A stretch of 64,000 nucleotides of DNA, from contig JAKPFT010000081.1 of assembly GCA_029551285.1 (NCBI GenBank), positions 18,620 to 82,619 on the forward strand. Direction: 5' to 3'. A program made the translations under genes and the position numbers. Each line of letters opens with the position of its first letter. Position 1 is the first letter of the stretch. Below are positions 1,346 to 38,093 of this stretch, in pieces. Below the pieces are notes generated by a model. It made no database searches. It saw only the letters and a list, made by a program, of their open reading frames with translations, and was not told the DNA's origin. Source of the stretch: a bacterium. Its GTDB lineage: Bacteria > Ratteibacteria > UBA8468 > B48-G9 > DSTR01.

Positions 1346-1417
1346 AAACGGATTTTCCCCCTGTGTTCTCTTCTCAAAATGTGCCTTTTTTTATAAATAA
1401 GTAAGACATATACAAAA

Positions 1418-1450
1418 TGTCAATCGCTAGATAATTGACGCTGGTCAATT
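1418..1450. promoter_or_regulatory. operator-like inverted/direct repeat gtcaat-N9-attgac-N4-gtcaat
   Basis: TGTCAATcgctagataATTGACgctgGTCAATT lies in the AT-rich intergenic region upstream of tilS. Confidence 0.2.
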
Positions 1451-1708: not shown

Positions 1709-2716
1709 ATGGACACACTTTTTCGCCGGGTTCTTACCTTTGCCGCAAACAATTCCCTTTTCTCCCCTGGTGAACGGCTTCTGATCGCAGTCTCTGGCGG
1801 CGCTGATTCCACCTTCCTGCTGCATTTTCTGGCCAGCGTGGCTCCGGAGAAAAAAATCAGGCTCAGAGTCGCATACATTCATCACCATCTTCGGCCTGAG
1901 GCTGACCGGGAATTGGAATTTGTAAAAAAACTATGCCTTTCCAGGAGTCTGCCCTTTTCCTGCCGCCATCTCCACCTGCCAAACCGTTCTTCCCTGGAAA
2001 ACCAGGCCAGGCTGGCTCGTTATGCTGCCCTGGCAGGTATCGCTCGACAAACCAGGTGCCAGGCTATTGCTACCGGCCACACCCTGGACGACCAGGCCGA
2101 AACAGTGCTGATGAGAATTCTGCGGGGCTGCGGCCTGGCCGGACTGAGGGGCATTCTTCCTTTCGCACCCTGTCTCCCGCGTTGCCCCGTGCCGGTGGTC
2201 CGTCCGCTTCTGGTGGTCACCCGGCAGGAAATAGAAAAATTTCTGAGAGAAAAAAATCTTCCTTTTCTTCAGGATGCCTCCAACTTCAGCCCAGAATTCT
2301 TCCGCAATAAAATCCGGCACGAAATAATCCCCTTCTTAGAAAAGTCAAGTCCACGGCTGAAATATCACCTGGCCAGAACCTCACTCCTGGCCCGGGACGA
2401 TTTTCAGATTCTGGAGAGAGAAGCCGAATCCGCTAAGACCTGTTTGTGTCGGAAAGAGAAAAACAGATTGTTTCTTGACCGACGGGGCTATCTCCTGCTT
2501 CCAGCAGGGATTCAGCGGCTCCTGCTCAGTTTAATCCTGTGCGAAATCACCGGTTGCCCTTATCGGCGTTTCTCTCAGCTGGAGACTATCCGGCAGATTA
2601 TCAGCCTGGGGAAACAGATGGAGTTTTCCCTTCCAAACAGCCTCAAACTGACGGTTAAACCGGAAAGAGTCATTTTCGCTAAAAAGTTGACCGAAAAAGC
2701 GGCTGTGGTAAAATAA
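1709..2716 (+). CDS. tilS: tRNA(Ile)-lysidine synthetase
   Basis: PP-loop motif LLIAVSGGADSTFLL (SGGxDS). The length fits TilS. Start chosen at MDTLFRR rather than the longer ORF start at 1673. Confidence 0.8.
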   Translation: MDTLFRRVLTFAANNSLFSPGERLLIAVSGGADSTFLLHFLASVAPEKKIRLRVAYIHHHLRPEADRELEFVKKLCLSRSLPFSCRHLHLPNRSSLENQARLARYAALAGIARQTRCQAIATGHTLDDQAETVLMRILRGCGLAGLRGILPFAPCLPRCPVPVVRPLLVVTRQEIEKFLREKNLPFLQDASNFSPEFFRNKIRHEIIPFLEKSSPRLKYHLARTSLLARDDFQILEREAESAKTCLCRKEKNRLFLDRRGYLLLPAGIQRLLLSLILCEITGCPYRRFSQLETIRQIISLGKQMEFSLPNSLKLTVKPERVIFAKKLTEKAAVVK

Positions 2717-13426: not shown

Positions 13427-16400
13427 TTATCCAGTCCGGTCCAGTTCAAACTTGACCGTGATAATCTGATAGGGCTGATAAGAAAAACTGACGCCTTCTG
13501 CTCCGTAGCGCTCGGCGAGAAGATGCTCGGGTTGCTCCAGCAGATTGCAGAGCCAGACCCGGCCAAAGGTTAACCGTGGCAGATTTAACTTCAGACAGAC
13601 CTGCCCGGCGGTGTTGAAAGCCTCATAAAGTCTGAGAATCAGACTTTTTCTGTCCTGCCCCATTTTGGCTGTCTCCACCAGAAGATGGCTCCTGTCTCTT
13701 CCGGCTTCCTTCAGAACAAGATGGGCCCCCTTTAGTTCTGGCCGGACAAACCCGCGGCAGCATAGCACCGGCTGATTAAACTGGCCGGCATACTCTGGCA
13801 CCCTGGCAGCCGACCAGCGGCCCCGGTGCGGATAAAGAGCATAAGAGAAAACATGGTGGCCCCGGTCAGCCTGGCTATCCGGGGAAATACTGCTGCGCAG
13901 AAGTGTCAGACGAAACTCACCACGGCTAAAACTGTGGCCATATTTGCCATCATTGATGAGGGCCAGACCTGCTTCCTCCCGCGATAAATCCACCCAGCGC
14001 TGCGCCGGGACCTCAAAACGGGCCTGTTCGTAGGAAGTATTGGTGTGGCTTGGCCTTTCCAGGGCTCCAAACTGGACCTCACAGGTAGCCTGAGCGGTCC
14101 TGAAAGCTGTGGGAAACCAGGCCTTCAGGACACATTCCCTTTCCTGCCAGTTCACCTCGGTGAGAATCCTCACCATCGGTTCTTTGCGGAAAAGGTAGAG
14201 ATGTTGAACCACGGTGGAGTGCCCGATCTTTCTGACAAGGGTGGCTTTCTGAAAGAGGACTGTCTCCACCAGCGACAGCGGCCTCAGCAGGGAACCGCCT
14301 CGCTGGTACAACATTGATTGGTGAACCTCATCTAAATTCCAGGCGCTCATTTTGGGGTCAAGGGACTTATCCTGATAGAGTTCCAGGATATTCAGCCCGG
14401 GCTGACCGGCCAGTTCCAAAACCGGCTGCTTCAACTTCAAAGAGACGATGGTTCCACTTTCCGGGTCCAGCCGTAACCTGCAAAAAGCATTCTCCAGAAC
14501 TGGCTCTTCCCTGCGCTTTTTCTGTCGCACTCTTTCGGGCTTGCCTGCGGAGGCAGACTTCAGCGCTATCTCAGCGAAACTCCACGGCGCCAGATTTTCC
14601 ACTTCCACCCAGAGGGATTTTTCATCCCGGGCCCACGGAAAGGCTACCGGGGCCGGCCAATCACCTGGCAGTTGCAAATAGCCGCTCCAGTTCCAGGAAA
14701 AGGGATTGAAAACTGTCAGGGAGCTTTCAGCCGGTTGACTGAGCCTGGTCCAGACCTCATGTTGAAGCTTCCGACAGACATCCTTAACGGCTTTTAGTTG
14801 TCTGTTGCTTTCCCGATAAACCTCGCCAATGGAAGAACCGGGAAGAATGTCATGAAACTGGTTAACCAGCACTGTCTTCCAGGCCTGCTCCAGGGTAGTC
14901 TGGACGCTTTGAGGCTCAGGCAAAAACCAGGAGAAAATTTCTGTTGCCTTCAGCGAGTTTTCCGCTTCCCGGTTGAGTTTCTTGACGGTGGCCTGGGTCG
15001 TGTATGTTCCCCGATGGAATTCTAAATATAGTTCCCCGACCCAGACCGGCAGTTTCTGGCCCTGCGCCTGGCGCAGCAGACATCTGCGGAAATTTTCCAG
15101 GGTCGCTTCCTTCACCCGGACATTGCCGGAAAGACCCTGCCTTAAAATCTGGAAACGCCTCACCATCGCTTCTTTCGGGCCACCGCCCCCATCGCCATAG
15201 CCGAACGGTATCAGTTGACAGCGACAGGCCTGGCTCTGGCGGTATACCTGATATGTCCGGTAAACCTGCTGCGGGGAAAGGATGGTGTTACAGGTGGCGT
15301 AACCGGAAGCAGTTGGCGTCACCAGAAAGTGAGCGAGAATCTGGCTGCCATCAATACCTTCCCACCAGAAGGTGTGGTAAGGGAAGTCATTGGTTTCATT
15401 CCAGCTGATCTTGGAGGTGATGAACAGTTTGATGCCACTCCGGGACAAAATCTGCGGCAGATTGGCGGAAAACCCGAAAGAATCAGGCAGCCACACTGTT
15501 TGACAGTCAACGCCAAATTCTTTTTTGAAAAATTCCTTCCCGTAAAGAACCTGTCTGATAAGAGATTCACCACCCGGCAGGTTGGTATCACACTCCACCC
15601 AGAGAGCGCCGGAAGCATCCCAGCGCCCCTGCCGGGCCAGTTCTTGAATCTGCTGGTAGAGGGCCGGGGCATCTTCCGTCAGGTACTGGTAGAGCTGCGC
15701 CTGGCCCTGTTGAAAAATCCAGTAAGGATAATTTTTCAGGAGAAAAACCTGGGTGGCAAAAGTTCTAATAGCTTTCTCCCGCGTCACCGCAAGTTCCCAG
15801 AGCCAGGCAAGGTCAAGGTGGGCGTGACCGAAAGCATACAGAGTAAAAGGTAAGGTTTTCTCCTGGCCCAGAAGGTTCTCCCGGAGAAAGCCTGCCACCT
15901 GGCGGCAACTTTGTTCCAGGTTTTCCGGGTAAAGGAAATCTATTCTCCGGAAGGCTTCATGCAGAATGGCGTAGTAAGGCTCTGCCGCTGCCTTTTCCTG
16001 GTCAAGCACCTGGGCCATCTCCACCAGGCAACCGAAAAGTTCTGACAGATTGAAAATCGCTTTGCTTACCCGGCGCAGTTCTAATTTCTGGAGAACCTGC
16101 GGTCCGAAACTGGCCAAACTCCCCCAGTGAGCACCGCTGTACAGTCTTATCTGCAGCTTCAACTTCCGACCGGGCTCAAGCGCCGGCAGGGAAACAGGCT
16201 GCCGGTCATCCCAGATCGCCGTGGCCAGCCCGGAATACATCTTTCCGTCAAGATAGACCAGGCCCTCGGTAATCGTTCCCCAGTCCAGAAACACCTGCAG
16301 GAACTCGTTCTCAGGGTCATACTCCGGCACGACAAAATCCTTAACCAGATACCAGTAACGGCCATCTGGCTGAAGGACGCTGCCGAAATTTACCATTCTA

Positions 16401-16558
16401 ACCCGTTTCCCTGGACAGGCCACCTCTTCCGGTTTGTCCCCGGCCAGGTGAAGCTGGACTGGTAACAGATTGAATATTTCTTTTACCGCCAGCTCGTCCA
16501 GGTCCTGGCGCCGGTTAGTTAGAAATTTCTTTAACGATTCGGAAGGCCAGTAAGCCAC
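13427..16558 (-). CDS. glycoside hydrolase family 38 alpha-mannosidase-like protein
   Basis: 1043 aa. GH38 N-terminal motif AFGHAHLDLAWLW (HxHxDxxW). GYGDGGGGP loop and C-terminal beta-sandwich. Confidence 0.8.
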   Translation of the reverse strand: MAYWPSESLKKFLTNRRQDLDELAVKEIFNLLPVQLHLAGDKPEEVACPGKRVRMVNFGSVLQPDGRYWYLVKDFVVPEYDPENEFLQVFLDWGTITEGLVYLDGKMYSGLATAIWDDRQPVSLPALEPGRKLKLQIRLYSGAHWGSLASFGPQVLQKLELRRVSKAIFNLSELFGCLVEMAQVLDQEKAAAEPYYAILHEAFRRIDFLYPENLEQSCRQVAGFLRENLLGQEKTLPFTLYAFGHAHLDLAWLWELAVTREKAIRTFATQVFLLKNYPYWIFQQGQAQLYQYLTEDAPALYQQIQELARQGRWDASGALWVECDTNLPGGESLIRQVLYGKEFFKKEFGVDCQTVWLPDSFGFSANLPQILSRSGIKLFITSKISWNETNDFPYHTFWWEGIDGSQILAHFLVTPTASGYATCNTILSPQQVYRTYQVYRQSQACRCQLIPFGYGDGGGGPKEAMVRRFQILRQGLSGNVRVKEATLENFRRCLLRQAQGQKLPVWVGELYLEFHRGTYTTQATVKKLNREAENSLKATEIFSWFLPEPQSVQTTLEQAWKTVLVNQFHDILPGSSIGEVYRESNRQLKAVKDVCRKLQHEVWTRLSQPAESSLTVFNPFSWNWSGYLQLPGDWPAPVAFPWARDEKSLWVEVENLAPWSFAEIALKSASAGKPERVRQKKRREEPVLENAFCRLRLDPESGTIVSLKLKQPVLELAGQPGLNILELYQDKSLDPKMSAWNLDEVHQSMLYQRGGSLLRPLSLVETVLFQKATLVRKIGHSTVVQHLYLFRKEPMVRILTEVNWQERECVLKAWFPTAFRTAQATCEVQFGALERPSHTNTSYEQARFEVPAQRWVDLSREEAGLALINDGKYGHSFSRGEFRLTLLRSSISPDSQADRGHHVFSYALYPHRGRWSAARVPEYAGQFNQPVLCCRGFVRPELKGAHLVLKEAGRDRSHLLVETAKMGQDRKSLILRLYEAFNTAGQVCLKLNLPRLTFGRVWLCNLLEQPEHLLAERYGAEGVSFSYQPYQIITVKFELDRTG

Positions 16559-16616: not shown

Positions 16617-17432
16617 TCACTTCTCCGCAACAAAAACCCTGACCGGAATTTTCTTCTGAAGTTGTTCCAGAAGGTTGGAAAAAGCCTGGGCATATTTTTT
16701 CTGGTAGAGTTCCTCCCTGACCCGGTTCATCATTTCCCGGGGAAGACTTTTTTCCTTCACCTCAGTCACCACAAAGACATGCCACCGTGTCTCCACCATC
16801 ACCGGTTCTGTCAACTGTCCCGGAGCAGTTCGGGTTACCACCGCCTGCACCGCTGGCTTGATTTCGTCGTGGGCCAGCCAGCCTACATCTTCCAGTTCCG
16901 ATATTTTCCCCGGGTTCCAGGCCCGGTAAAAGTTGTCGGCCTCTTCCCTGGAAGTAAAATCCTTTCCCTTGAGGTAGTAAAGGGGCTGCGTCTGAAACTG
17001 TTTGCTGGCCTGGAGTACTTCCCCGGCGCTGACCTTAACTTCCCGGCCAATTTTCTCCGCCAGGAAGGCTCTCACCTTCAGGTTGTCTTCTAAATTCTTC
17101 AGGAAGCCTTCGTAAGAGAAATTGTTTTCTTTTAATTTTTGCCGCCAGGCCTGCTCGCCACCCAGCCTCTTCCGGATAGCCGCCACCTCCTGTCTCAACT
17201 CCTCTCTGGTAATCTGCACTTTCTCCTCTTCCGCTGCCACCAGCAGCAATTTTTGAGTAATCATCCGGCTGAGGGCTGTCCGGTAATCAACCCTGTCCTC
17301 CTGCATACACCGACGAACCTCACTTTCTAAGACGGCTTTCCGGCCGACCAGCGCCACCGTTTTATCATCAGAGTACAGACCACTGGCCGCCAGCGTCCAG
17401 ACTGACAGCAGCAGCATAAACTTTTTTTTCAC
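16617..17432 (-). CDS. periplasmic chaperone, SurA N-terminal-domain-like
   Basis: Signal peptide MKKKFMLLLSVWTLAASG. Resembles the SurA/PpiD chaperone domain. No clear parvulin domain. Confidence 0.45.
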   Translation of the reverse strand: MKKKFMLLLSVWTLAASGLYSDDKTVALVGRKAVLESEVRRCMQEDRVDYRTALSRMITQKLLLVAAEEEKVQITREELRQEVAAIRKRLGGEQAWRQKLKENNFSYEGFLKNLEDNLKVRAFLAEKIGREVKVSAGEVLQASKQFQTQPLYYLKGKDFTSREEADNFYRAWNPGKISELEDVGWLAHDEIKPAVQAVVTRTAPGQLTEPVMVETRWHVFVVTEVKEKSLPREMMNRVREELYQKKYAQAFSNLLEQLQKKIPVRVFVAEK

Positions 17433-18364
17433 TGGAGTTGCTCCTTCAAAAGTTCAAGTTTTCCCTCATAAATTTTTACCGCACAGCGGTCCCGAAGCTC
17501 CTTGATGTATTTCTCTATCGCCGCTCGCTTTTCCTGAGCAATGAAAACGTTTCGCAGATAAGGTTTAGCCTCTTCAAAGCTCTGGAAACGTTCTGGTTCA
17601 TGCCCCACCAGTTTAATCAGATGGTATCCCAGGCTGGTCTTGATGACCTTGCCCAGGATCTGTCCCGGCTTCATCTGGGCCACCACTTCCTGCAGTACCG
17701 GGTCAAGTTTGTCCTTAGGAATCCAGCCCAGGTCTCCGCCCCTATCCCGGCTGCTGCTGATGGAGTCGCGGCGGGCCACCGCTTCAAAATCTTCTCCCAA
17801 AATAAGCCGGTTAAGGATATTTTCCGCATCCTCCTGGGTGGCCACCACTATTTCCTGCAGGCGGTATTTCTCCGGAATCAAAAAATCATTCAGGTGGGTT
17901 TGATAGTAACTGCGCAGTTGTTCCTCCGGTACCTGCAGCCGGGCCACGATTTCCTGTTCCACAAATTCTCTGACCAGTAACTCCTGGTAATACTGCTGGA
18001 CCAGCGGCTGTATCCGTGACTGGTAGCGGCGCCGCCTTTTTGAAGCCTCCTGAAGAAGAAGGTCCTGATTAATCTGGTCTTCCACAATGAGACGCACATC
18101 GCCCTTAAGGTATTCCTGGTAGACCTCAGGCGCTTTTTTAACCCTTCTGACAATCTCCTCAAGAGTCAAAACTCGGCCGTTGACGACCGCCACCGCATTT
18201 CTCTTTATCCACCAGTGATACCAGAGCCAGGAACCAATCACAATCATGACTACCGCGGCCAGCCCGGACCAGAACCGCCATTTCCGCCGGCCGGTCAGCA
18301 CGTGGCGAAGCCCAAGACGCACCTGGCTGCCCCACGCGGTGGGGAAAAGAGTCAAATTTCTCAA
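17429..18364 (-). CDS. membrane-anchored parvulin-type peptidyl-prolyl isomerase (PpiD/PrsA-like)
   Basis: N-terminal TM helix. C-terminal PpiC domain with GDLGWIPKDKL...LGYHLIKL. Confidence 0.7.
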   Translation of the reverse strand: MRNLTLFPTAWGSQVRLGLRHVLTGRRKWRFWSGLAAVVMIVIGSWLWYHWWIKRNAVAVVNGRVLTLEEIVRRVKKAPEVYQEYLKGDVRLIVEDQINQDLLLQEASKRRRRYQSRIQPLVQQYYQELLVREFVEQEIVARLQVPEEQLRSYYQTHLNDFLIPEKYRLQEIVVATQEDAENILNRLILGEDFEAVARRDSISSSRDRGGDLGWIPKDKLDPVLQEVVAQMKPGQILGKVIKTSLGYHLIKLVGHEPERFQSFEEAKPYLRNVFIAQEKRAAIEKYIKELRDRCAVKIYEGKLELLKEQLQ

Positions 18365-18391: not shown

Positions 18392-20722
18392 TTAAAGATT
18401 CTGCCGCCACATCACTTTTTTCCGGCGCCGGTCGTAAACTGCCCGGAACTTCTTTTCTGCGGCCACTTCCTTTTCTTCTATTTTACCATTGCCATTTCTA
18501 TCTGCCACTTTCTGGCCGGTGACGGTGACGGAAAAGATGTTACTGCGCACGGTGATCAATCCGACCACCTTAGAAAAAACCAGTTCTTTTTCCGCTTCAT
18601 CATCAAGGTATCCATCGCCGTTGTTATCCATCAGGTCAAAACCGAACCGGGTTATCTCCCGGTTTAATTCTTCGCCTGGCGATGACCCCTGCCCGAATTG
18701 GCCCAGAATTTCCGAAATGTCCCGGAATGGCCGGCTGGCCAGGAGCCGTTCAGTCAGCTTCGGCGAGAAAAGCGGCAGACACAGTAACACCGTCTCACTG
18801 GCCGTATTCACATTCAAACGTCCCAGTGTGGCCAGCGCCGGTCTGGCCACCACCGTGACCTCATCTAAAATGGCCCGGTCTTCTCCAGTCCTCCAGAAGT
18901 CAAGGGTACGCCACTGCTGCTGCCGATGCACAAAGGATAACTCGGCAATGGTGGAGAAGGAGCGGTTCTTAACACAGAAGGATGATGGCCACAGATGCAC
19001 CCAGCCGACTTTTCCGAACTCACCGCTGACCCATGGTTGAAAGACAGAATTCTGCTGGCCGGGACTGCCTTCAAAGGGGAACCAGTCCAGAGTGCCCCTC
19101 ATTCTGGGGTCGTTCTTCTGAACCGTCGTCCAGGGCGTATCCACCGGATAGCGTGCTTCTTCAATGAGCTGGTCGTGGTTGTCATAAAGACGCAGGGTGA
19201 AATCAAATCCCAGTTTCTCCAGGAAAGGCAATTTTCTGAGAAAGATGGAAAACTTTTCCGATCCGGCTGGATTGAGCACCAGAATTGGCTCATACTGCTG
19301 ACACCCATCGGGGTCTCGCAGAGGCAAAACCAGAGGGAAAGGGGTCCCTTCCACAGGAATGATTATGACCAGTCGCACCAGGTCCCCGATCGTGTAGTAG
19401 GAATGAGCCTTCAGAACAGTCCCCGGTGGAATAAGAATAGAAGTTGGGTTAATGGCTTCCAGAAGATCGCGTATCCTTCCTGCGTCCACCTGCGTTTCTC
19501 CCCGGGTAACATCATCATAAACGGTCCGGGATTCCTTCAGCAGCACATTCAACACTGAGAGGGGAACCGTAACAACTCCGGTAATCTTCCAGCCGCCGAT
19601 GTCCAGGTCCTCCGGGTAAGGATTAAAAATTTCTATGAACTGCCCTGCTTTTTCCGCGACCTCAAGACCAATGGGAATTTCTTTAATTTCAAAGGGGACG
19701 ACGGCCTCAACCTCGTTAAAAGCAGGAACTTTTTCCACGCCGATAATCTTGTGGCCGTCCAGTTCTACCACTGTAGGCAGACTATCTTTATCCCGGAAAT
19801 CAATGCTGTTAGCGGCCAGTTGAGCCGCGTGAAATTTTTCATATCCCAGCCGTTTGAAGAGTTCAAAGAAATCGTCAAAGGAGGCCTGGTTCAGATTGAG
19901 CCGGGTGACTTTCTGGCGGTTCTCGTTGAAATCCACGGAAAACGTGGAAAGAAAAGGCTGGACCTGCCAGAATAACTTCTCGCTGCAGCCCGGTACCAGC
20001 CGCAGGTCCTGCGGAATGATATAGGGTCTGTCTCCTCCGCGCGGCCAGCGAATAGAGAATTCGTCTGGTTCGTCAATGCCTTCGCCTTCTTCGTCAACCA
20101 GACCGTCGCCATCATTGTCAATGCCATCTGAAGAAAGTAACATCTGGTCCCGATCGTCATCCTGGTCGGCGACCCCTGGCAGACCATCAGCGCCGTAGCG
20201 AAAACGGACCACCGCTGCCGACAGCGACCTTCCTAACAACTGTGGCAACAGGCTGATCTCCGCCACGGAGTGACCCTGGTTAAAACTGCCGGTGACATTA
20301 CCGCAGGCATTAAGGTTGATTTTGCCATTTTCATCCTCCACCAGAACCGCGTACCGGCCGATGAGGCGGCCCTGCCGGTCAAGAATTGGAAACCACCGGG
20401 AATCAGGTGTCCCGTCGCCATCGTTGTCCACATCTTCGCCGGAAAAAACGGTCCGCCAGCTGTCCAGATAACTGTCACATTCCTGGCTGTCATGGTCCAG
20501 TTCCCAGATGGCCTGCTCCAGGCCTGCCCTGGCGTGCCGCATGGCTTCCCGGCCAGACATCATCTTGAAGAAGGTTCGTTCCCCGAACTTAAACAGGAGC
20601 AGCAGACTCAGAACAAAGGTAAACAGAATCATAAGCACGGCCAGGGTAAACAGCAGCAGCCCTCCCCGGGTAGTTTTCCTTTCACAGCTTGAAACTTTTG
20701 GCTCCAGTTTTTCTCGGTTCAT
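18392..20722 (-). CDS. GspK-like giant minor pseudopilin with Asp-rich putative Ca-binding insert and C-terminal HhH motifs
   Basis: 776 aa. N-terminus TRGGLLLFTLAVLMILF is a GspK-type hydrophobic segment without Glu+5. Asp-rich loops DVDNDGDGTPDS, DQDDDRDQ..DGIDNDGDGLVDEEGEGIDEPDE, DLMDNNGDGYLDDEAEKE. C-terminal LNVNTASETVLLCLP is HhH-like, as in GspK. It is the last gene of a G-H-I-J pseudopilin operon. Confidence 0.55.
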   Translation of the reverse strand: MNREKLEPKVSSCERKTTRGGLLLFTLAVLMILFTFVLSLLLLFKFGERTFFKMMSGREAMRHARAGLEQAIWELDHDSQECDSYLDSWRTVFSGEDVDNDGDGTPDSRWFPILDRQGRLIGRYAVLVEDENGKINLNACGNVTGSFNQGHSVAEISLLPQLLGRSLSAAVVRFRYGADGLPGVADQDDDRDQMLLSSDGIDNDGDGLVDEEGEGIDEPDEFSIRWPRGGDRPYIIPQDLRLVPGCSEKLFWQVQPFLSTFSVDFNENRQKVTRLNLNQASFDDFFELFKRLGYEKFHAAQLAANSIDFRDKDSLPTVVELDGHKIIGVEKVPAFNEVEAVVPFEIKEIPIGLEVAEKAGQFIEIFNPYPEDLDIGGWKITGVVTVPLSVLNVLLKESRTVYDDVTRGETQVDAGRIRDLLEAINPTSILIPPGTVLKAHSYYTIGDLVRLVIIIPVEGTPFPLVLPLRDPDGCQQYEPILVLNPAGSEKFSIFLRKLPFLEKLGFDFTLRLYDNHDQLIEEARYPVDTPWTTVQKNDPRMRGTLDWFPFEGSPGQQNSVFQPWVSGEFGKVGWVHLWPSSFCVKNRSFSTIAELSFVHRQQQWRTLDFWRTGEDRAILDEVTVVARPALATLGRLNVNTASETVLLCLPLFSPKLTERLLASRPFRDISEILGQFGQGSSPGEELNREITRFGFDLMDNNGDGYLDDEAEKELVFSKVVGLITVRSNIFSVTVTGQKVADRNGNGKIEEKEVAAEKKFRAVYDRRRKKVMWRQNL

Positions 20723-20736
20723 AAAAGCAGTCCGGT

Positions 20737-21432
20737 TTAACTTCCTCCCGCCGCGGTAAAAGATCTGAAACTGATAGTTTTTTCTTCGGTATCAGGTGTT
20801 TGCTCCAGTTTGAAAGTACGGCTAAATTCTCTGGTCAGCCGCCGGCCCTCCACCCGGGAAGAACTCTGAACAACCACCGTCACCTTCACCTGCAGGGGTA
20901 ACCTGACCAGCATCTCCTCTTCTCTGGTATCCCAGGACGAACGCCACTTCTGGCCATCAAAATAAAGAAAGCTCAGGCTGAGAATGTTTCTGGCCACCGG
21001 TTGTGCTCCAGAAAAACCCTCGGGAAGAACAAAATCCGGATTGTCTCTGTCCACACGCATAACACTGACCTTCACCACCTGCCCGTCAAGGTAGAGACCA
21101 AATTTAGCCAGGTCAGAACCTTCACCGGGAGAAAAGGGCGCAATAAATTTTACCCGGTGTTCTTCCCCGAGAAAATGCATGCGCCACCGGCCCGGCAGGT
21201 CATTAACCTGGGACAGGGAAAGATGTCTTTCCACAAAGTCCAGAAGTTCCGTGGCTTCTGCCAGCACTTCTTTTTCCGCCATTTTCTGGCGGCTATCCAG
21301 CAATGTTTTCCGAAAGAGCATCAGGCTGGCCGTCATGACCAGAACCGAGATGAGCAGAGCGACCACCACCTCCAGAAGAGTTAGGCCTCTTTCACCTTCT
21401 CCGGAAGGAGTAATAGAAACTTCTCTTCTCAA
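20737..21432 (-). CDS. GspJ-like minor pseudopilin
   Basis: Prepilin motif G|LTLLEVVVALLIS (Glu+5). The I-like gene stops at 21392, so the start is most likely the in-frame TTG at 21432 (leader MRREVSITPSGEGERG) rather than the ATG at 21618. Confidence 0.5.
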   Translation of the reverse strand: MRREVSITPSGEGERGLTLLEVVVALLISVLVMTASLMLFRKTLLDSRQKMAEKEVLAEATELLDFVERHLSLSQVNDLPGRWRMHFLGEEHRVKFIAPFSPGEGSDLAKFGLYLDGQVVKVSVMRVDRDNPDFVLPEGFSGAQPVARNILSLSFLYFDGQKWRSSWDTREEEMLVRLPLQVKVTVVVQSSSRVEGRRLTREFSRTFKLEQTPDTEEKTISFRSFTAAGGS

Positions 21433-21772
21433 CTTTGCCCCCTCGCTGCCAGTAGATTTCCAGGTCCACGCGGTAAAGCCCTTCTTTTTCCTCACGCAAC
21501 CAGGCCCGATAGGTGTATCCGGGCAAATCAGGTTCCGCACCCTCCAGATAATCGGGAACTTCCGGTCCTCCGGAGGCAGCATATTTCTCCTCCACTTTCT
21601 GAAAAACCCTGTCGGCAAGCTGACTGCAGGAAACGTAGGTGCGGGAACGACGCGAAAGGTTGTTCAGGACGGGCAAAACACGGAATAAAGTGGCAATGCC
21701 TGTTGCCAGAAGGCACAGGGAGACCAGCACCGTAATTAAGGTCAACCCATACCGGCTTTTATCCCGGGCCAT
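21392..21772 (-). CDS. GspI-like minor pseudopilin
   Basis: Leader MARDKSRY then G|LTLITVLVSL (Thr at +5). 126 aa. Confidence 0.55.
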   Translation of the reverse strand: MARDKSRYGLTLITVLVSLCLLATGIATLFRVLPVLNNLSRRSRTYVSCSQLADRVFQKVEEKYAASGGPEVPDYLEGAEPDLPGYTYRAWLREEKEGLYRVDLEIYWQRGGKVEKRSFYYSFRRR

Positions 21773-21791
21773 TCAGTTTGCTCTTTCCCTT

Positions 21792-22250
21792 TCACCGGCG
21801 CAGACATTTTCCGGTGAGATTGTAAAGCACCAATTTCTGCTCCTGGCCGGTCCTTTCATGGCGCAGAATAAGGTGCCCTGCCTGGCTGCAAGTGCCATCC
21901 GGCCGGAAAATCACCGGGTCAAACCCCTCGGTTTTTTCTGCTATCAGAACATGCTCCGGCAACTTATAGATTTTTTCTATCCGTTCCTTTCCCAGGCGGT
22001 AGATGGCAAAAGAAGATTCGGAAAAAACTACCTGGAACTCCCTGCGTTCGTTGAGAGCCGCCGCCCTGGCCATCTCCAGGGCAGCCAGTACCTGGCGGGT
22101 GGCGTTTTCCAGGGCAAAGGATTGCTGGCAGCGGTGAACAACGGTCAGGGTCGGAATCAGCAACAGGGCGAAGATGAAGAGGACTACCACCACTTCCAGA
22201 AGCGTCAACCCCTTTGCCGCTTTTTCCCTGAAAGGTGGCCGTTGCTTCAT
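21792..22250 (-). CDS. GspH-like minor pseudopilin
   Basis: Leader then G|LTLLEVVVVLFIF. 152 aa. Confidence 0.55.
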   Translation of the reverse strand: MKQRPPFREKAAKGLTLLEVVVVLFIFALLLIPTLTVVHRCQQSFALENATRQVLAALEMARAAALNERREFQVVFSESSFAIYRLGKERIEKIYKLPEHVLIAEKTEGFDPVIFRPDGTCSQAGHLILRHERTGQEQKLVLYNLTGKCLRR

Positions 22251-22256
22251 CAGTAG

Positions 22257-22709
22257 TTACCAGTTGCCGATATCATCCCCGGTGCCAAACTGTCTGTCCG
22301 GTCCGGCGGAAAGAATCACAAACGGGGTGCTGGTCCGGTCAGACTGAGGATATTTATAGACAAAGGGTGTCTTCCAGGCATCAACAATGTTGAGAGATTC
22401 ATCAAGGTCTTCCTGTTTTATCCTGAGGTATGGCCCCTGCCAGAGTTCATTCTCCACCGGTCCCTGGAGAAGTTCCACCAGGATCCGGTTGCCCTGCCCC
22501 TGCCAGTGCGGATAGTCTCCAAAGTCGGCTTCGTAGAGAGAAAGGGCGGCTTCCAGGGAAGCGATGAGACTTTTCGTTTTGACGGTCACGGCCTTGACGC
22601 GAGCCCGGTGAATTACCGGAAGCAGCAGGGCAGCCAGGACCATCGCAATGGCAATTACAACCAGAAGTTCTATCAGGGTTAGCGCCTTTTGCTCTTTAAT
22701 TTTTCCCAT
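22257..22709 (-). CDS. GspG/PulG-like major pseudopilin
   Basis: KEQKA|LTLIELLVVIAIA is the N-methylation/cleavage motif with Glu+5. 150 aa, typical GspG length. Confidence 0.7.
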   Translation of the reverse strand: MGKIKEQKALTLIELLVVIAIAMVLAALLLPVIHRARVKAVTVKTKSLIASLEAALSLYEADFGDYPHWQGQGNRILVELLQGPVENELWQGPYLRIKQEDLDESLNIVDAWKTPFVYKYPQSDRTSTPFVILSAGPDRQFGTGDDIGNW

Positions 22710-22802
22710 CTTTCACCTTTCAGACCTGACCGGCCTTTCATTTTATCCTTTTTTCACCGCCGAAGGGAAGAAGAACGTTTTCCCGGGACCAGCCGGATAT
22801 GC

Positions 22803-22808
22803 TATAAT
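22803..22808 (+). promoter_or_regulatory. -10-like TATAAT box upstream of the DUF167 gene
   Basis: gcTATAATca lies 7 nt upstream of the ATG at 22815. Confidence 0.25.
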
Positions 22809-22814
22809 CAGACC

Positions 22815-23030
22815 ATGAAAGTGAGCGTTACGGTGAAGCCATACGCCCGCCAGGCCAGAGTAATTGCCACGGACCAGGGCTTGATTGTTTATGTCGATGC
22901 CGCGCCGGTGGAAGGCAAGGCTAACCGGCGACTTCTGGAACTGTGCGCCCGACACTTCGGAGTGGCCCGTTCTCAAGTCCGCATCTGTCATGGAACTTCT
23001 GGCCGGCACAAAATCCTGGAAATCTCCTGA
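22815..23030 (+). CDS. DUF167 (YggU) family protein
   Basis: MKVSVTVKPYARQARV...LIVYVDAAPVEGKANRRL.ELCARHFGVARSQVRI..G.SGRHK is the YggU family pattern. Confidence 0.65.
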   Translation: MKVSVTVKPYARQARVIATDQGLIVYVDAAPVEGKANRRLLELCARHFGVARSQVRICHGTSGRHKILEIS

Positions 23031-23034
23031 CGCC

Positions 23035-23616
23035 ATGTCCCTCACAGAAACAGAACTGGTTCAAAGAGCAAAAAGCGGCGATAATAAAGCCTTTGAGCAA
23101 CTGATGCTGATGAACCAGGGAAAAATTTACAATCTGGGATTGAAACTGCTGCGCAATCGGGAAGATGCCGCGGACCTGCTTCAGGAAACATTCATCAAGG
23201 CTTACCAGAATCTGGGCGAGTTTGAAGGCAAGTCTTCTTTTTCCACCTGGATCTACCGGATTGCCACCAATTTTGCCCTCATGAAACTGCGCCAGCGTAA
23301 GACCAGAAACGTTTCCCTGGAAACAATGGCTGACCAGGCCAGGTCAACGTACAACCGGGAAATTTTAGACTGGTCAGACAATCCCCAGGCCCATCTTAAA
23401 AACCAGGAACTGAAGATGCTGCTGGAAGCAGCCATTACTTCCCTGCCGCCCAAATACAAAACCGTCTTCATTCTTCACGATATTGAGGGACTGCCCCTCG
23501 CCAGGGTGGCGGAGATTCTCTCCCTTTCCATTCCAGCAGTGAAAACCAGAATTCACCGCAGCCGTCTTTATCTTCGCGAGAAACTCTCCAGGTATTTCCG
23601 GGAAAGAGAGAACTGA
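23035..23616 (+). CDS. ECF (sigma-24 family) RNA polymerase sigma factor
   Basis: Region 2 (QETFIKAYQNLGEF...FSTWIYRIATNFAL) and region 4 (LPLARVAEILSLSIPAVKTRIHRSR). Confidence 0.85.
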   Translation: MSLTETELVQRAKSGDNKAFEQLMLMNQGKIYNLGLKLLRNREDAADLLQETFIKAYQNLGEFEGKSSFSTWIYRIATNFALMKLRQRKTRNVSLETMADQARSTYNREILDWSDNPQAHLKNQELKMLLEAAITSLPPKYKTVFILHDIEGLPLARVAEILSLSIPAVKTRIHRSRLYLREKLSRYFREREN

Positions 23617-23617
23617 A

Positions 23618-23857
23618 ATGAGGTGTGAAGATATTCTGCGCTGCCTGTGTGATTACATTGACGAGGAACTGGACGCGCTGACCGAAAGCTGTTTTCTGGA
23701 CCATCTGGAGCAATGCGCTCGCTGTGCGGCGCTTTTGCACACGGTGGAAAAAACGATAGACCTATCCCGTGACATCTGGCCCAGACAGGCGCGTCTTCCT
23801 AAGAAGGTAATCCGGCGCGTCTACTACCAGGTGCGGATTCATTATCGGCAGAGATAA
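23618..23857 (+). CDS. zf-HC2 anti-sigma factor (RsrA/ChrR-like)
   Basis: A small protein that starts 2 nt after the sigma factor stop. C..C...(H)...C..C pattern: CLCDYIDEELD...CFLDHLEQCARCAALLH. Confidence 0.65.
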   Translation: MRCEDILRCLCDYIDEELDALTESCFLDHLEQCARCAALLHTVEKTIDLSRDIWPRQARLPKKVIRRVYYQVRIHYRQR

Positions 23858-26017: not shown

Positions 26018-26851
26018 ATGAAAAAAAGTATCAACATCGGAGCCGTACCTGCGGCCTGGCCCCTGAAGGAAAAACTCCAGGCCATCAAGAAGGCCGGGTT
26101 TGAAGCGGTGGAACTCAACCTGGCCGAAGAAGGTTTTCTCAGTCTAACCAGCAGTCAGGAAGAAATTCTGGCTGTCCGCCAGCAGGTTAACCAGGCGGGA
26201 CTGGAAATAGCCAGTTTGCTGGCCGGTGGGTTCTGGCGGCATCCGCTGACCAGTTCTGACCAGACTACCCGCAGTCAGGGGGAGAACCTGCTGAAGAAAG
26301 CCATAGAAATCTGTTCCTGGCTGGGTACCGAGGCGCTCCTGGTCGTGCCAGGCGTGGTCGGCCCCGAGCCTCAAACAGGACTGGTAACCGGCTACGATGA
26401 AGCCTACCAGCGCAGTCAGGAATGCCTTCGCCGGGCCGCGGCCTTCGCAGAGAAATCCCGGGTTTACCTGTGCGTGGAAAATGTCTGGAACCGTTTCCTG
26501 TTAAGCCCGCTGGAGATGAAACGTTATGTGGAAGAAATAGGTTCTCCCTATGTCCAGGTCTATTTTGATGTCGGCAATGTGTTGTTGTTTGGTTTCCCGG
26601 AAATGTGGATCAGAATTCTGGGTAAACTTATCCGGCGCATTCACCTGAAGGATTTCAAGACCGGCGTAGGTACCGGATACGGTTTCTGCACACTTCTGGA
26701 GGGCGATGTCAACTGGCCGGAAGTACTGAAAGCCCTTCAAGAAGTCGGTTATGACAGTTATCTGACCGCGGAAGTTGGACCGTACCGGTACTATCCGGAG
26801 ACAGTGCTGCTGCACACTTCTACCAGTATGGACCGAATCATGGGCAGGTGA
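26018..26851 (+). CDS. sugar phosphate isomerase/epimerase (xylose isomerase-like TIM barrel)
   Basis: AP-endonuclease 2 / TIM-barrel family pattern (VELNLAE..., YLCVENVWN, HLKDF). Confidence 0.7.
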   Translation: MKKSINIGAVPAAWPLKEKLQAIKKAGFEAVELNLAEEGFLSLTSSQEEILAVRQQVNQAGLEIASLLAGGFWRHPLTSSDQTTRSQGENLLKKAIEICSWLGTEALLVVPGVVGPEPQTGLVTGYDEAYQRSQECLRRAAAFAEKSRVYLCVENVWNRFLLSPLEMKRYVEEIGSPYVQVYFDVGNVLLFGFPEMWIRILGKLIRRIHLKDFKTGVGTGYGFCTLLEGDVNWPEVLKALQEVGYDSYLTAEVGPYRYYPETVLLHTSTSMDRIMGR

Positions 26852-26858
26852 GACCTGT

Positions 26859-28010
26859 ATGACCAGCCGGGAACGGATCAGTCGGGTACTTTCGGGCTTG
26901 TTACCTGACCGGGTCCCTGTTTCTCTTTATCGGCTTGACCCTTTTGAAAACAACAGTTTCTGGGCTCAACATCCCAGCTGTCGTCGTCTTCTGGAAGAAG
27001 CCCGGAAAATCCAGGATACCTTCCACTTTTATCAACCCCGGACAGGCTTTTTCTTTTCCGCGCCGGAAGCCGTGCCACTGAAAGTCGTGGAAAACCAGGA
27101 TACACCCATTTCCCGGACGATTGCCCTGACTGTGGAGACAAGCCTTGGTCCCCTGACCAGGATTGCCCGGCGGACTACTGTCAGCAGTATTGAATGGGTC
27201 CAGAAACCCTGGATTGAGAAAACCTCGGACATAGAGAAATTTCTCAGCCTGCCCTATACACCCTATCTTCCTGACCTCAGCGACTTCTTCCAGCAGCAAC
27301 AACAATTAGGGGAGAAGGGAATGATGGTGGTCAGACTGCCTGACCCCCTGGGAGTGGTGGGAACTCTTTTTGCTCCAGGAGACCTGGCCAGGTTCGCCCT
27401 GGAATATCCCCAGATGGTCAACCGGCTTCTGGACCATGTCCAGGAAAGGTTGCTACCACTTTACACCTACCTTGGCTCCCACCTGGATAATGCCATTGTC
27501 AGAATCCGCGGTTCTGAGTATGTGACGCCGCCGGCTCTGCCCCGAGAGTATTTCCGGGACATAAAAGGTATTTTCAACGATTATGTTGTCCGGTACGACC
27601 GGGTTCTGATAGAGGCCTTACGCCGGGGAGGTCGCCGGCTGCATCTTTGCTTCCACTGGCACGAGTTTGTGGAACCCCTGGTGCCGCTGATTGTTAGACT
27701 GCAACCGGATATTGTTGAACCTATGGCCAATACCCAGGAACTTCCCAACGTCATCCTGCGCAGCCGCCGAACCTTTGGAGAAAATATGGTGATCATGGGC
27801 GGGCTGGCAGCAGAGGAATTGGAGTTTGGCGAGCCGGCTGACATTGAACAACGGGTGAAAGACGCTCTTTTGCAGGGAGGGAGAAGAGGTCGGTTTGTTT
27901 TAATCACCTGCGGGTTGCCCACTTCCGTTCCCCTGGCACCCAATATTGAACAGAACTATCTAACCTTCCTTGAAGCCGGCCAGAGGTTCGGAACCTATCC
28001 CCTGCGCTGA
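26859..28010 (+). CDS. uroporphyrinogen decarboxylase (URO-D) family protein, MtaA/CmuA-like
   Basis: N-terminal ERISRVLSGLLPDRVPVSL is the typical URO-D/MtaA start. Paralog of 61470..62609. Confidence 0.6.
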   Translation: MTSRERISRVLSGLLPDRVPVSLYRLDPFENNSFWAQHPSCRRLLEEARKIQDTFHFYQPRTGFFFSAPEAVPLKVVENQDTPISRTIALTVETSLGPLTRIARRTTVSSIEWVQKPWIEKTSDIEKFLSLPYTPYLPDLSDFFQQQQQLGEKGMMVVRLPDPLGVVGTLFAPGDLARFALEYPQMVNRLLDHVQERLLPLYTYLGSHLDNAIVRIRGSEYVTPPALPREYFRDIKGIFNDYVVRYDRVLIEALRRGGRRLHLCFHWHEFVEPLVPLIVRLQPDIVEPMANTQELPNVILRSRRTFGENMVIMGGLAAEELEFGEPADIEQRVKDALLQGGRRGRFVLITCGLPTSVPLAPNIEQNYLTFLEAGQRFGTYPLR

Positions 28011-33465: not shown

Positions 33466-34026
33466 ATGAAGCCGGGGAAAATCTTTGTCTTGTCCGCTCC
33501 TTCCGGGACCGGCAAGACCACCATTGCCCGAAGACTCGTCCAGGAAATACCCGGTTTAGCCCTGAGTGTCTCCCTGACTACCAGAAAGCCGCGACCCGGG
33601 GAAAAAAACGGCCAGGACTACTTTTTTGTTTCCCGGAGGCATTTTCAAAAACTGATTCAGGAAAAGGCTCTGGTTGAATGGGCCTGCGTCTTCGGGAATT
33701 ATTACGGGACACTCCGCTCTTTCGTGGAGGAAAACCTCAGGGCCGGACGGCCGGTGTTACTTAACATTGACACCCGGGGAGGGCTGCAAATTAAAAAAAG
33801 GTTCCCCGGGGCCAGATTAATTGGCTTGCTACCTCCTTCTCTGCGGGAACAGGAAAGGCGCCTGCGCCAGCGAGGAGACCTTGCGGAAGAAGAAATCAGA
33901 AAGAGGCTGGAGGAAGCCCGAAGAGAAAGAAAAACACTGCTGCAGTTTTACCAGGTGAGGTTCGTTAACCGTGACCTGCAAAGTACTGTTGAGAAGATAA
34001 AAAAGTTTATCCTTAGGCATGCCTGA
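33466..34026 (+). CDS. gmk: guanylate kinase
   Basis: P-loop SAPSGTGKTT and the GMP-binding region are typical of Gmk. 186 aa. Confidence 0.85.
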   Translation: MKPGKIFVLSAPSGTGKTTIARRLVQEIPGLALSVSLTTRKPRPGEKNGQDYFFVSRRHFQKLIQEKALVEWACVFGNYYGTLRSFVEENLRAGRPVLLNIDTRGGLQIKKRFPGARLIGLLPPSLREQERRLRQRGDLAEEEIRKRLEEARRERKTLLQFYQVRFVNRDLQSTVEKIKKFILRHA

Positions 34027-34849
34027 ACTACCCCGGGTCAAGCTTGGCCGGTTAGAAGTTTCCAGGTTGCTCATCGGCGGCAACCCATTTTCCGGTATTT
34101 CCCATCAGCATCCTGGACTGGACCAGGAACTGCTGGATTACTACACCACAGAAAACATCAAAAAAGCCTTAGCGCGAGCCCAGCAATCAGGCATTAATGC
34201 CTTTGTCGCCAGGGCCGACCGTCACTTCTTGCGGGTGCTCCGGGAGTGTCACCAGGAAGGAAGAATAAGCATGCACTGGGTCGCCCAGACAGTTCCAGAA
34301 CTGGCTGATTTCCGAAACGGCCTGGCCGCAGCCCTTTCCTGCCCTTACCGGCCAGCCGCCATTTACTTCCACGGTGGTCTGGCTGACAGCCTCTGGCAGG
34401 AAAAAAAGCTGCTCCAGCTTCAAGAATTTCTCCAAATGATCAAAGATACAGGTGTCCTCTGCGGGCTGGCGGCTCACCTTCCGGAAACGATTGAAGAAGC
34501 GGAAAGTCAAGACTGGCCGGTTGATTTCTATCTGACCTGCTTTTATAACCCGGCGGGCCGGGGTAAGAAAGGTCTCACCGTACTGACGGGTTCGGCCGGA
34601 GAGTACTTTGACGAGAAAGACCCCTTCCGCATGGCTCAGGCCATCCAGGCTGTTAAAAAACCCTGTCTGGCGTATAAAGTTCTGGCCGCAGGGCGAAAGT
34701 CTGTTACTCCCGGGCTGCTGAAAGAAGCCTTCCGCTTCGCTTACGCCAGTATCAAACCCGGCGATGCTGTAGTGGTGGGCGTCTTTCAAAAATACCGGGA
34801 CCAGATTGCGGAAGATGTTTCCCTTGTCCGGGAGATTCTTTCTTCCTGA
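34019..34849 (+). CDS. hypothetical protein (possible TIM-barrel fold)
   Basis: 276-aa ORF that overlaps the gmk stop by 8 nt (operon coupling). No confidently recognised motif. Confidence 0.4.
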   Translation: MPELPRVKLGRLEVSRLLIGGNPFSGISHQHPGLDQELLDYYTTENIKKALARAQQSGINAFVARADRHFLRVLRECHQEGRISMHWVAQTVPELADFRNGLAAALSCPYRPAAIYFHGGLADSLWQEKKLLQLQEFLQMIKDTGVLCGLAAHLPETIEEAESQDWPVDFYLTCFYNPAGRGKKGLTVLTGSAGEYFDEKDPFRMAQAIQAVKKPCLAYKVLAAGRKSVTPGLLKEAFRFAYASIKPGDAVVVGVFQKYRDQIAEDVSLVREILSS

Positions 34850-36467: not shown

Positions 36468-38093
36468 CTAAAAGTACATGTTCTTCGCCATGAGGTAGTC
36501 AAAATCTGCCTCCAGTTCATTCGTCCGGACATGTTCTACCCGAGCAGCGATTTCCTCAGCCGTTTGCCGGCACTCCTGACAGAGTAACATCTCCCGGGCA
36601 CCCTCCAGAGCGCCGTTACCAATCTTGACCACAAGTTGTTCCGGTACCTGCGGAATAAGACCGATGGCCATGGCGTTGGCCGTGTTGATAAAGTTACCAA
36701 AACCTCCGGAGAGATAAACATGCTTCAGGTCTTCTACCGCGGCCGGATAGTAGTGGAGAAGTATCTCCACCCCGGTTTTCATGGCCGACTTGGAGGTAAC
36801 CAGTTGAAAAATGTCCTGCTGGGTAATTTTCAGTTCTCCGTTGAGATAAAAATCATTTTCAATCCTGGCCTGCCGGTTCATCAAGCCGTGCTTTAACATC
36901 TCCGCCAGCAAATCAATCAGACCTGACCCGCAGACTCCCACCGGGTACTTGCTGCCGATGGTGCTGTAAACAACCTTGCCGTTAAGGAGCCGTATTTCCT
37001 TAATCGCTCCCTCAATGGCACCGGTGCCACAACTGACGCTGTTGCCTTCAAAGGCGCCGCCAGCCGCACAGGAAGCCGCCACCAGCCGGTCTCTGTTACC
37101 CAGGACCAGTTCTCCGTTGGTCCCGATATCAATCATCAGCGATAATTCTTCGCTCCGGTACATTTCCGAAGCCAGAATGTCTGCCAGAATATCCGCTCCG
37201 ACATGGCCCCCGATTAAGGCCGCACCGTAAATGGCTCCCTTCGGATTTACGGCCAGTCCCACCTCCGCCGGGGCTACCGTAATGGCTTCCGGGTGGACTG
37301 GCTCAAAAGGTTTCGTGCCTAAAGAAGAAACATCCAGCCCGAGAAAAATGTTGCGCATGGTGGAATTACCCACCACCACCGTATCATAAATGTACCTTTC
37401 CAGCGGTTGACCGGCCTCTGCCGACAGTTCCCGCAGACCGCTGTTGATACCTTCCACCACCACCTTCTGCAGCTGTTTCAGCCGGTGTTCTCGTTTTTCT
37501 AAGGGCAGGTACCGGTGCGTCTCCCGGTCAATCAGGGTGTATTCAATGCGAGAAATCACATCGTTACCGTAAGAAATCTGTGGGTTGGTTCTGGCCATGG
37601 TCGCCAGGATATTTCCGGTTTCCAGGTCAACCAGGTCAAACACCAGCGTCGTGGTGCCAATGTCCACGGCCAGGCCGTAAATTTTTCCGAAATAATCATC
37701 AACCTTTTTCCCCTGGTAGAAAACCTGCTGCCCACTTCTGGTGACAGCCGGAGCCATGGGTATTTTCCGTTCCAGTCCATACTTGAGAATTTCGTAGGTG
37801 CCGAACTCCTTGATGAAAACCACGATATCCGAATCATCCTTAATCACTCTGGCCTGGCAGGCTAACCGCTCCTTATCGTTCAGAGCAAACTTCTTTTCCG
37901 CTGCGGTCAGCTCGTTGAGGTTGTCCTCGCCTTTTTCTACCCGGACCACACATTTGCCGCAGACACCATGGCCGCCGCATTCAGCGTGAATTTCCAGCCC
38001 GTTATCTCTGATATAGTCAAGAATGGACAAACCCGGATGCACGCTGAACCCGGACTTGCCTTTCTTAAACTGCGGGAAAAAGATGTGTCCCAT
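36468..38093 (-). CDS. RACo-like ASKHA ATPase with N-terminal 2Fe-2S ferredoxin domain (corrinoid reductive-activase family, DUF4445)
   Basis: N-terminal plant-type ferredoxin Cys motif (CGGHGVCGKCVV...C). C-terminal actin/hexokinase-like ATPase body (DIGTTTLVFDLVD, IDIGTNGELVL). Confidence 0.7.
   Translation of the reverse strand: MGHIFFPQFKKGKSGFSVHPGLSILDYIRDNGLEIHAECGGHGVCGKCVVRVEKGEDNLNELTAAEKKFALNDKERLACQARVIKDDSDIVVFIKEFGTYEILKYGLERKIPMAPAVTRSGQQVFYQGKKVDDYFGKIYGLAVDIGTTTLVFDLVDLETGNILATMARTNPQISYGNDVISRIEYTLIDRETHRYLPLEKREHRLKQLQKVVVEGINSGLRELSAEAGQPLERYIYDTVVVGNSTMRNIFLGLDVSSLGTKPFEPVHPEAITVAPAEVGLAVNPKGAIYGAALIGGHVGADILADILASEMYRSEELSLMIDIGTNGELVLGNRDRLVAASCAAGGAFEGNSVSCGTGAIEGAIKEIRLLNGKVVYSTIGSKYPVGVCGSGLIDLLAEMLKHGLMNRQARIENDFYLNGELKITQQDIFQLVTSKSAMKTGVEILLHYYPAAVEDLKHVYLSGGFGNFINTANAMAIGLIPQVPEQLVVKIGNGALEGAREMLLCQECRQTAEEIAARVEHVRTNELEADFDYLMAKNMYF

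Follow-up and report, generated by a model that had tools for sequence, protein, structure and literature searches.

Here we describe a cluster of five consecutive minus-strand genes (hereafter G, H, I, J and K) located within a 64,000-nt stretch of DNA (hereafter the window; contig JAKPFT010000081.1 of assembly GCA_029551285.1, positions 18,620 to 82,619), which very probably is an operon of the gspG-H-I-J-K type, encoding the pseudopilins of a type IV filament machine, from an uncultured Ratteibacteria-type bacterium (related to the Planctomycetes-Verrucomicrobia-Chlamydiae, PVC, group). The last gene of the cluster encodes a giant GspK-type tip pseudopilin that is best described as a domain within a domain within a domain, i.e. 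a lamin-tail domain (LTD) nested in an alpha-domain which is in turn nested in a pilin core. A preliminary description of the window, made from its letters alone, had placed the five genes in the order that is typical of type II secretion systems (T2SS), and the open reading frames (ORFs) found at these positions, together with the fold or profile evidence obtained for each of them, bear this out. The nested lamin-tail domain, the most distinctive feature of K, had been missed.

Architecture of the K protein

The K gene (18392..20722, 776 aa; positions are those of the window and, unless stated otherwise, the features of the locus lie on the minus strand) had been regarded as GspK-like, and the hidden Markov model (HMM) searches agree with this assignment, though with scores that remain below the curated cut-offs. 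Specifically, K matched T2SSK (PF03934) with an E-value of 3.7e-3 (18.0 bits vs a cut-off of 24.2), T2SSK_1st (PF21687) with 14.3 bits (cut-off 26.2), the NCBIfam GspK model NF037980 with 1.3e-4 (21.6 bits vs a cut-off of 130) and the helix-hairpin-helix (HhH) family HHH_3 with 1.8e-4 (also under its curated cut-off). Among 43 members of the K family, HHH_3 was detected in 41, LTD in 35 (best E-value 2.6e-9), T2SSK in 29 (best 7e-8) and T2SSK_1st in 11 (best 3.8e-8).

The succession of elements along K is that of GspK, in which the pilin sheet is split by an alpha-domain composed of two HhH halves. In the structural model an N-terminal hydrophobic pilin helix (residues 19-76, 20495..20668) is followed by three strands (residues 94-130) bearing the first of several acidic loops, and then by the first part of the alpha-domain, which comprises acidic loop 2 (188-221), the first HhH half (226-257) and a T2SSK_1st-like stretch (279-316). 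Between the two HhH halves lies the LTD region, a beta-sandwich with helical insertions (residues 318-560, 19043..19771) that carries the conserved motifs GQFIEIFNPY and QKNDPR, and in which we recognised the features that characterise Pfam LTD (PF00932), namely an Ig-like lamin-tail sandwich with an (E/Q)(F/W)(I/L)E(L/I)(F/Y)N motif. The nested insert that contains it spans ~300 residues (318 to ~620) and makes up most of the extra length of K, which the Asp-rich loops emphasised in the preliminary description do not. The second HhH subdomain (GRLNVNTASETV..., residues 631-695, 18638..18832; HhH half at 632-668) coincides with the matches to Pfam HHH_3/T2SSK (636-678) and to NCBIfam GspK (625-682), and profile searches against the PDB with this stretch retrieved ComEA, EEPD1, PsbU and XcpX. 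An HhH-like LNVNTASETV motif, noted earlier as the end of K, does exist, but at residues 636-645, i.e. ~130 residues before the C-terminus. As modelled, the last beta-strands of the protein (729-739, 753-764 and 769-775) complete the pilin sheet in cis.

The HhH halves of K find their closest PDB sequence matches in ComEA and in the HhH region of EEPD1, one K homologue has been annotated by JGI (Joint Genome Institute) as a ComE-like DNA-binding protein, and LTDs occur in secreted or extracellular nucleases. These similarities would fit an alternative in which K, placed at the tip of a pilus for DNA uptake, serves as the receptor of the DNA (by means of its ComEA-like HhH motifs and its LTD). 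We consider such a role unlikely to a high degree, since both K and its LTD are strongly acidic: the mature protein has an isoelectric point of 4.85 and a net charge of about -31 (-14 in the LTD region and -14 in the first part of the alpha-domain), with similar medians in the family. Furthermore, canonical GspK possesses the same HhH-like fold and has no known DNA role, and a Pfam scan of essentially all ORFs of at least 150 aa across the 64 kb (hereafter the window scan) found no comEC, comF or dprA near the locus.

Three Asp-rich, calcium-site-like loops had been proposed in K; the loops are indeed conserved throughout the family, but they number four. Loop 1 (DNDGDGTPD, of the DxDxDGxxD type; D99-D107, 20402..20428, modelled with a predicted local distance difference test score, pLDDT, of about 90) retains D99 in 41/43, D103 in 35/43, G104 in 32/43 and D107 in 37/43 members. 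Loop 2 (DDDRD...DGIDNDGDGLVDEEGEGIDEPDE; D202-D210 with an acidic tail, 20060..20161), which has a weak NCBIfam acidic-repeat match (1.4e-3), shows invariant acidic positions in the 31 of 43 members having the segment, the remaining 12 (from which it is absent) being distant ones. In loop 3 (DLMDNNGDGYLDDEAEKE; residues 696-713, with D699-D707, 18584..18637) the conserved positions are D699 (39/43), D703 (37/43), D707 (39/43), E711 (39/43) and E713 (41/43). Loop 4 (DRNGNGKIEEKE; D741-E752, 18467..18502) is a 12-residue EF-hand-like loop placed between strands 729-739 and 753-764 (Pfam EF-hand_1, E = 0.74), whose D741, N743, N745, G746, I748 and E752 are kept in 29-34 of the 43 members. Because calcium sites are already known for this family (two in the GspK from enterotoxigenic Escherichia coli and three in XcpX, confirmed by isothermal titration calorimetry; PMC6211770), the Asp-rich loops stand out less than had been implied and, by analogy, they appear as an elaboration and not as a new principle. 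We consider that K probably serves as a tip cap, or as an adhesin, stabilised by calcium.

In comparison with GspK/XcpX (PDB 3CI0, 5VTM), K is alike in its N-terminus without Glu at position +5 (Glu5), in the split pilin sheet, the two HhH-like halves, the C-terminal strands supplied in cis (as reported for GspK; PMC13533445), the place after gspI-gspJ and the presence of acidic loops (calcium binding being known for the family). It differs in length (776 aa vs ~260-280 resolved residues in the solved chains), in the ~300-residue LTD-containing region within the alpha-domain, in its four DxDxDG/EF-hand-like loops, in HMM scores that stay under the cut-offs, in having no linked GspC/D/L/M, and in the PilT-like ATPase encoded in the motor locus of its relatives. 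Type IVa pili offer a second point of comparison (PilX/PilK together with PilY1/PilC), as they share an apical K-type subunit without Glu5 that nucleates the fibre with I/J-type partners, and a retraction ATPase (here in the loci of relatives); PilY1 also carries a 9-residue EF-hand-like calcium loop. In such pili a beta-strand is contributed in trans by the adhesin, which is a protein of its own (PMC13533445), whereas here the extra domain lies inside K, the strand is provided in cis, and the operon holds no PilY1-like gene. Thermus ComZ and Caulobacter CpaL are K-type tip pilins with large inserts of another fold (beta-solenoid or other) that are placed differently, whereas K carries an LTD sandwich as its insert, within the GspK alpha-domain. 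As modules presented at the tip of a filament, ComZ, CpaL and PilY1 are regarded as functional analogues of K.

The way in which type IV filaments and T2SS pseudopili present functional modules at their tips is under active study, and the known cases include PilY1, which acts in trans, as well as the cis-acting ComZ and CpaL. To these the K family adds an architecture in which an Ig-like lamin-tail domain is nested in the GspK alpha-domain, and which is conserved across several uncultured phyla; to our knowledge, the envelope machines of these phyla have never been studied experimentally. The literature that we searched contained nothing relevant linking the lamin-tail domain to GspK, pseudopilins, T2SS or pili. 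The practical impact of the observation is modest, as current models are not contradicted and the function is one that we infer.

The pseudopilin gene set

Profile evidence for the genes preceding K was obtained to differing degrees. The GspG-type major pseudopilin G (22257..22709, 150 aa) carries both T2SSG (50.3 bits, cut-off 21; E-value 2.8e-13) and N_methyl (25 bits, cut-off 21.2), and matches the TIGR01710 gspG model with 7e-20 (71.4 bits, under the equivalog cut-off of 88.85). The GspH-type minor pseudopilin H (21792..22250, 152 aa) is likewise recognised by Pfam GspH (PF12019; 25.3 bits, cut-off 21) and N_methyl (24.6 bits, cut-off 21.2), so that both proteins pass the N_methyl check suggested in the preliminary description. 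For the GspJ-type minor pseudopilin J (20737..21432, 231 aa counted from TTG 21432) the proposed T2SSJ match is present (1.2e-4), but its 22.8 bits fall under the cut-off of 28 (N_methyl 19.8 bits). A profile built from 14 members of the J family and run against PDB sequences matched EpsJ (3cfi_B/2ret_B, E = 2e-4), GspJ (3ci0_J, 0.03) and XcpW (0.1-0.3), the alignment running through the hallmark YFDGxxWxxxW...LP motif. The GspI-type minor pseudopilin I (21392..21772, 126 aa) had two homologues in the word-indexed search, its model was built from a three-sequence alignment, and the matches of its family profile to PDB sequences were confined to the N-terminal helix. In structural comparisons K, I and J all match T2SS proteins best.

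The genes are separated by 6, 19, -41 and 14 nt (in the order G-H-I-J-K), the negative value reflecting a 41-nt overlap of I and J. The open frame of J starts at 21618 and offers a TTG candidate start at 21432; we favour the latter, as had been proposed, because a GAGGGGG Shine-Dalgarno-like run stands 5 nt 5' of it and because full-length J homologues are mostly ~205-222 aa long. An AAGGTGA sequence stands ahead of the ATG of G. Promoter and terminator scans of the locus yielded nothing informative, and no convincing terminator was found between K and the downstream genes encoding peptidyl-prolyl isomerases (PPIases).

All five proteins have prepilin-like N-termini (a slash marks the predicted cleavage site): QKA/LTLIE in G, KG/LTLLE in H, YG/LTLIT in I, RG/LTLLE in J and GG/LLLFT in K. 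These are class-III-like and not unrelated signal anchors, and the reported absence of Glu5 from the N-terminal hydrophobic segment of K is confirmed (0/43 family members have it). Glu5 is present in G, H and J and absent from I and K; thus, two of the four minor pseudopilins lack it here, whereas in classical T2SS only K does. Nearly all members of the I-type family (window and homologues in the relatives' loci L011-L064) are without Glu5 and have Thr, Ser or Ala in its place. Furthermore, G has Ala at position -1 of its predicted cleavage site, where Gly is near-universal; among the homologues examined, this residue is common only to a 70%-identity relative (L012, 2007-2456, ERA/LSLIE), all others having Gly.

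A prepilin-type cassette ending in a giant protein is also known from the PVC group (Verru_Chthon cassette A-D of Verrucomicrobia and Chthoniobacter; TIGR02600, TIGR02599, TIGR02596), its protein A being about 1300 aa long. Weak NCBIfam matches were obtained to protein D (by G and H), protein C (by J) and protein A (by residues 711-740 of K); as they amount to 9-18 bits vs cut-offs of 70-332, membership in this cassette was rejected.

Relatives, motor genes and the type of machine

The word-indexed search returned 64 close cluster representatives of the K family, among them one 100%-identical fragment (from an NCBI metagenome-assembled genome, MAG), and two 70% relatives, of which one is labelled Ca. 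Omnitrophica. At 50% clustering the family comprises 557 representatives (E<=1e-3), many of them 900-1400 aa long and having the N-terminal ~340 residues in common, and at least 141 stretches were confirmed in GTDB species genomes (Ratteibacteria, Omnitrophota, TA06, Aerophobetes and Scalindua). Database pipelines already label some of these proteins as GspK or as lamin-tail-domain-containing protein.

Synteny, surveyed by tblastn over 88 fetched loci and by gene tables, revealed a block that is conserved in nearly all Ratteibacteria-type loci and in which H-I-J-K are followed by two PPIases (one of the parvulin type and one SurA-like). Both are present in the window on the strand of K, where they had been missed: a membrane-anchored parvulin-type PPIase (17429..18364, 311 aa; Pfam Rotamase_2, 4e-19) lies 27 nt downstream of K, and is succeeded, with a gap of -4 nt, by a SurA-like periplasmic chaperone/PPIase with a signal peptide (16617..17432, 271 aa; SurA_N_3, 8e-9, plus Rotamase_2). 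The block occurs in dozens of species (35-70% identity) with invariant motifs. In the gene tables of several relatives pdxA and/or ksgA come after the PPIase pair, giving a string adjacent to H-I-J-K that we take to resemble the surA-pdxA-ksgA operon of E. coli.

Directly upstream of the module, deeper relatives (K identity 35-42%) and Scalindua (about 25%) encode GspE and GspF (L001, L028, L031, L038, L041, L047, L052, L056 and Scalindua), and the Ratteibacteria-type loci of these deeper relatives have a PilT-like ATPase gene beside them. In some cases further pilin genes are interposed (DUF1559-type, T2SSG-type and a 578-aa PilX_N protein in L041). The clade of the window (K identity 42-70%) shows no E or F within up to 10 kb upstream, and G is often missing from its block. 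In line with the earlier statement that GspD, GspE and GspF are absent within ~20 kb, the window scan found none in the whole window (nor any T2SSE, T2SSF or Peptidase_A24 gene). The proposal that the module is detached from a machine encoded elsewhere gains from these relatives with upstream motor genes, and from one MAG (GCA_016928555.1) with the detached layout, which has H-I-J-K-PPIase on contig JAFGKM010000033 (L026) and, on contig JAFGKM010000003 (L089), genes for a ParA-like ATPase, GspE, a PilT-like ATPase, a second GspE, GspF and two pseudopilins. As the GspE/PilT-like/GspE/GspF genes of this MAG are carried on another contig, the detached layout is compatible with a working machine. 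The motor locus of relatives (L089, 6101-13939; L091, 1-7950) encodes, besides a ParA/MinD-like ATPase, a PilT-like one that is flanked by two full-length GspE/PilB-like ATPases bearing MshEN domains, as well as one GspF and DUF1559-type pseudopilins, with no secretin or alignment-complex gene.

The absence of E, F and D from the 64 kb, together with the Ala at -1 in G and the missing Glu5 in I, would also be expected if the detached module were a decaying remnant used by no machine. We regard this as highly improbable, given that the five ORFs are intact and tightly spaced, that the H-I-J-K-PPIase block has been kept across dozens of species at the identities given above, that the detached layout coexists with an intact E/PilT/E/F locus within one MAG, and that the lack of Glu5 in I is family-wide and not a local lesion.

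The PilT-like ATPase in the motor loci of relatives makes a surface pilus, or a hybrid, a serious rival. The five genes would then form the minor-pilin set of a retractable surface type IV pilus (used for adhesion or motility), with K as a built-in tip adhesin replacing PilY1; we grant this account real, if limited, credence. It has to contend with the T2SSG match of G, with the T2SS proteins that K, I and J resemble most in structure, and with the alpha-domain of GspK, which is a T2SS hallmark absent from PilX/PilK (PMC13533445); moreover, no pilus has been seen.

For the favoured pseudopilin operon, a working model can be drawn from the assembly of known tip complexes, in which the K-type subunit without Glu5 is apical, its C-terminal strand fills its own sheet and the docking of I and J licenses polymerisation, with H at the J/K interface and G forming the shaft (PMC13533445, PMC6211770). 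The prepilins of the window would be cleaved by a prepilin peptidase encoded elsewhere, K would cap the filament and, with I and J, form the initiation complex, and H would connect this complex to the G polymer. Assembly would be powered by GspE-type ATPase(s) acting on a GspF platform, with genes that lie at another locus, and the fibre might be retractable, considering the PilT-like ATPase in the relatives' motor loci. The calcium loops may rigidify the acidic apex of K, and the nested LTD sandwich, at the tip, could serve to bind or contact a ligand (surface or glycan), a substrate or the outer-membrane channel. The PPIase pair encoded downstream may help to fold the periplasmic parts; a conserved housekeeping string of the surA-pdxA-ksgA type would be an equally simple explanation for their linkage.

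Loci that resemble this one have been described in Omnitrophota, a PVC-related lineage in which T2SS-like loci contain gspE/F, numerous genes with class-III signal peptides and a Rotamase_2 PPIase that is conserved; they differ by including gspD and rcpC and by preceding giant (>10,000 aa) genes (bioRxiv 10.1101/2023.11.21.568195). The same study counted no proteins of at least 5,000 aa in any of the 34 Ratteibacteria genomes that it covered and mentions no LTD-bearing GspK (bioRxiv 10.1101/2023.11.21.568195). A broader reading, which we put forward as possible but rather doubtful, is that the LTD-bearing GspK represents a distinct display of a tip receptor or adhesin, its nested sandwich being braced by several calcium loops, and that T2SS-type pseudopilins, a motor set with a PilT-like retraction ATPase and the lack of a linked secretin typify a T2SS/retractile-pilus hybrid that would be common among candidate phyla related to the PVC group (Ratteibacteria, Aerophobetes, TA06 and Scalindua).

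Several observations count against the assignment of the locus to a pseudopilin operon with a calcium-stabilised tip protein. In the window proteins, no HMM for K, J or I reaches its curated cut-off; I, in contrast to classical GspI, has no Glu5; and the Ala at -1 in G may lower its processing. The window scan found no secretin, GspC/L/M, PilM/N/O or prepilin peptidase, and no secretin, GspC/L/M or PilM/N/O was present in the annotated flanks of L001-L006, L041, L089, L091 and L092. The machine may therefore be either a T2SS or a surface pilus, with E and F seen in relatives. Calcium binding by K and the tip position of its LTD are deduced from motifs and a monomer model, in which loop 2 has low confidence (pLDDT 57-67), and the PPIase linkage may be nothing but conserved gene order. 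With regard to genome annotation, a pseudopilin module that has split in evolution, inside a single clade, from the genes for its ATPase and platform calls for caution with automated secretion-system callers that require co-localisation.

Neighbouring genes and other features of the window

The window is a housekeeping chromosome segment (dnaE, ksgA, holB, tmk, trxB, alr, pyrF, gmk, znuABC and fur), and tRNA and Rfam scans revealed only two tRNAs, both distant from the pseudopilin locus. Public contigs of the same organism that match the edge genes of the window measure 1.7-4.6 kb (ERZ795060, GCA_035359135.1). On the 3' side of the PPIase pair a GH38 mannosidase, ksgA and dnaE follow, with the mannosidase occupying the place of the relatives' pdxA. 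Upstream of G, and divergent from it, are a DUF167-like ORF, an extracytoplasmic function (ECF) sigma/anti-sigma pair and trxB; the small DUF167/YggU-like ORF and the ECF sigma factor with its zf-HC2 anti-sigma factor (plus strand, 22689-23857) are arranged in the same way in a 70% relative (L003), and a regulatory link to the pseudopilin operon is possible.

The first 2 kb of the window (1-2000) have a GC content of 0.39 (vs about 0.52-0.55 elsewhere), and the 440-aa ORF at 23-1345 has no Pfam match; this part may be foreign or fast-evolving DNA. Further ORFs without a Pfam family at E<=1e-3 are located at 57062-58417 (451 aa), 34019-34849 (276 aa) and 41471-42160 (229 aa). A RACo-type corrinoid activase gene (36468-38093) and a gene for a double CbiA/ParA plus 4Fe-4S protein (39199-41127) are separated by ~1.1 kb that contains no ORF of at least 150 aa and no Rfam match. 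In total, two genes of the GH38 alpha-mannosidase family are present (13427-16558 and 59004-61481), along with a weak URO-D-like (methyltransferase-like) ORF at 26775-28010 and another at 61470-62609, beside the second GH38 gene. A bacterial gene of the deoxyhypusine-synthase family is found at 62617-63831 (Pfam DS, 7e-64).

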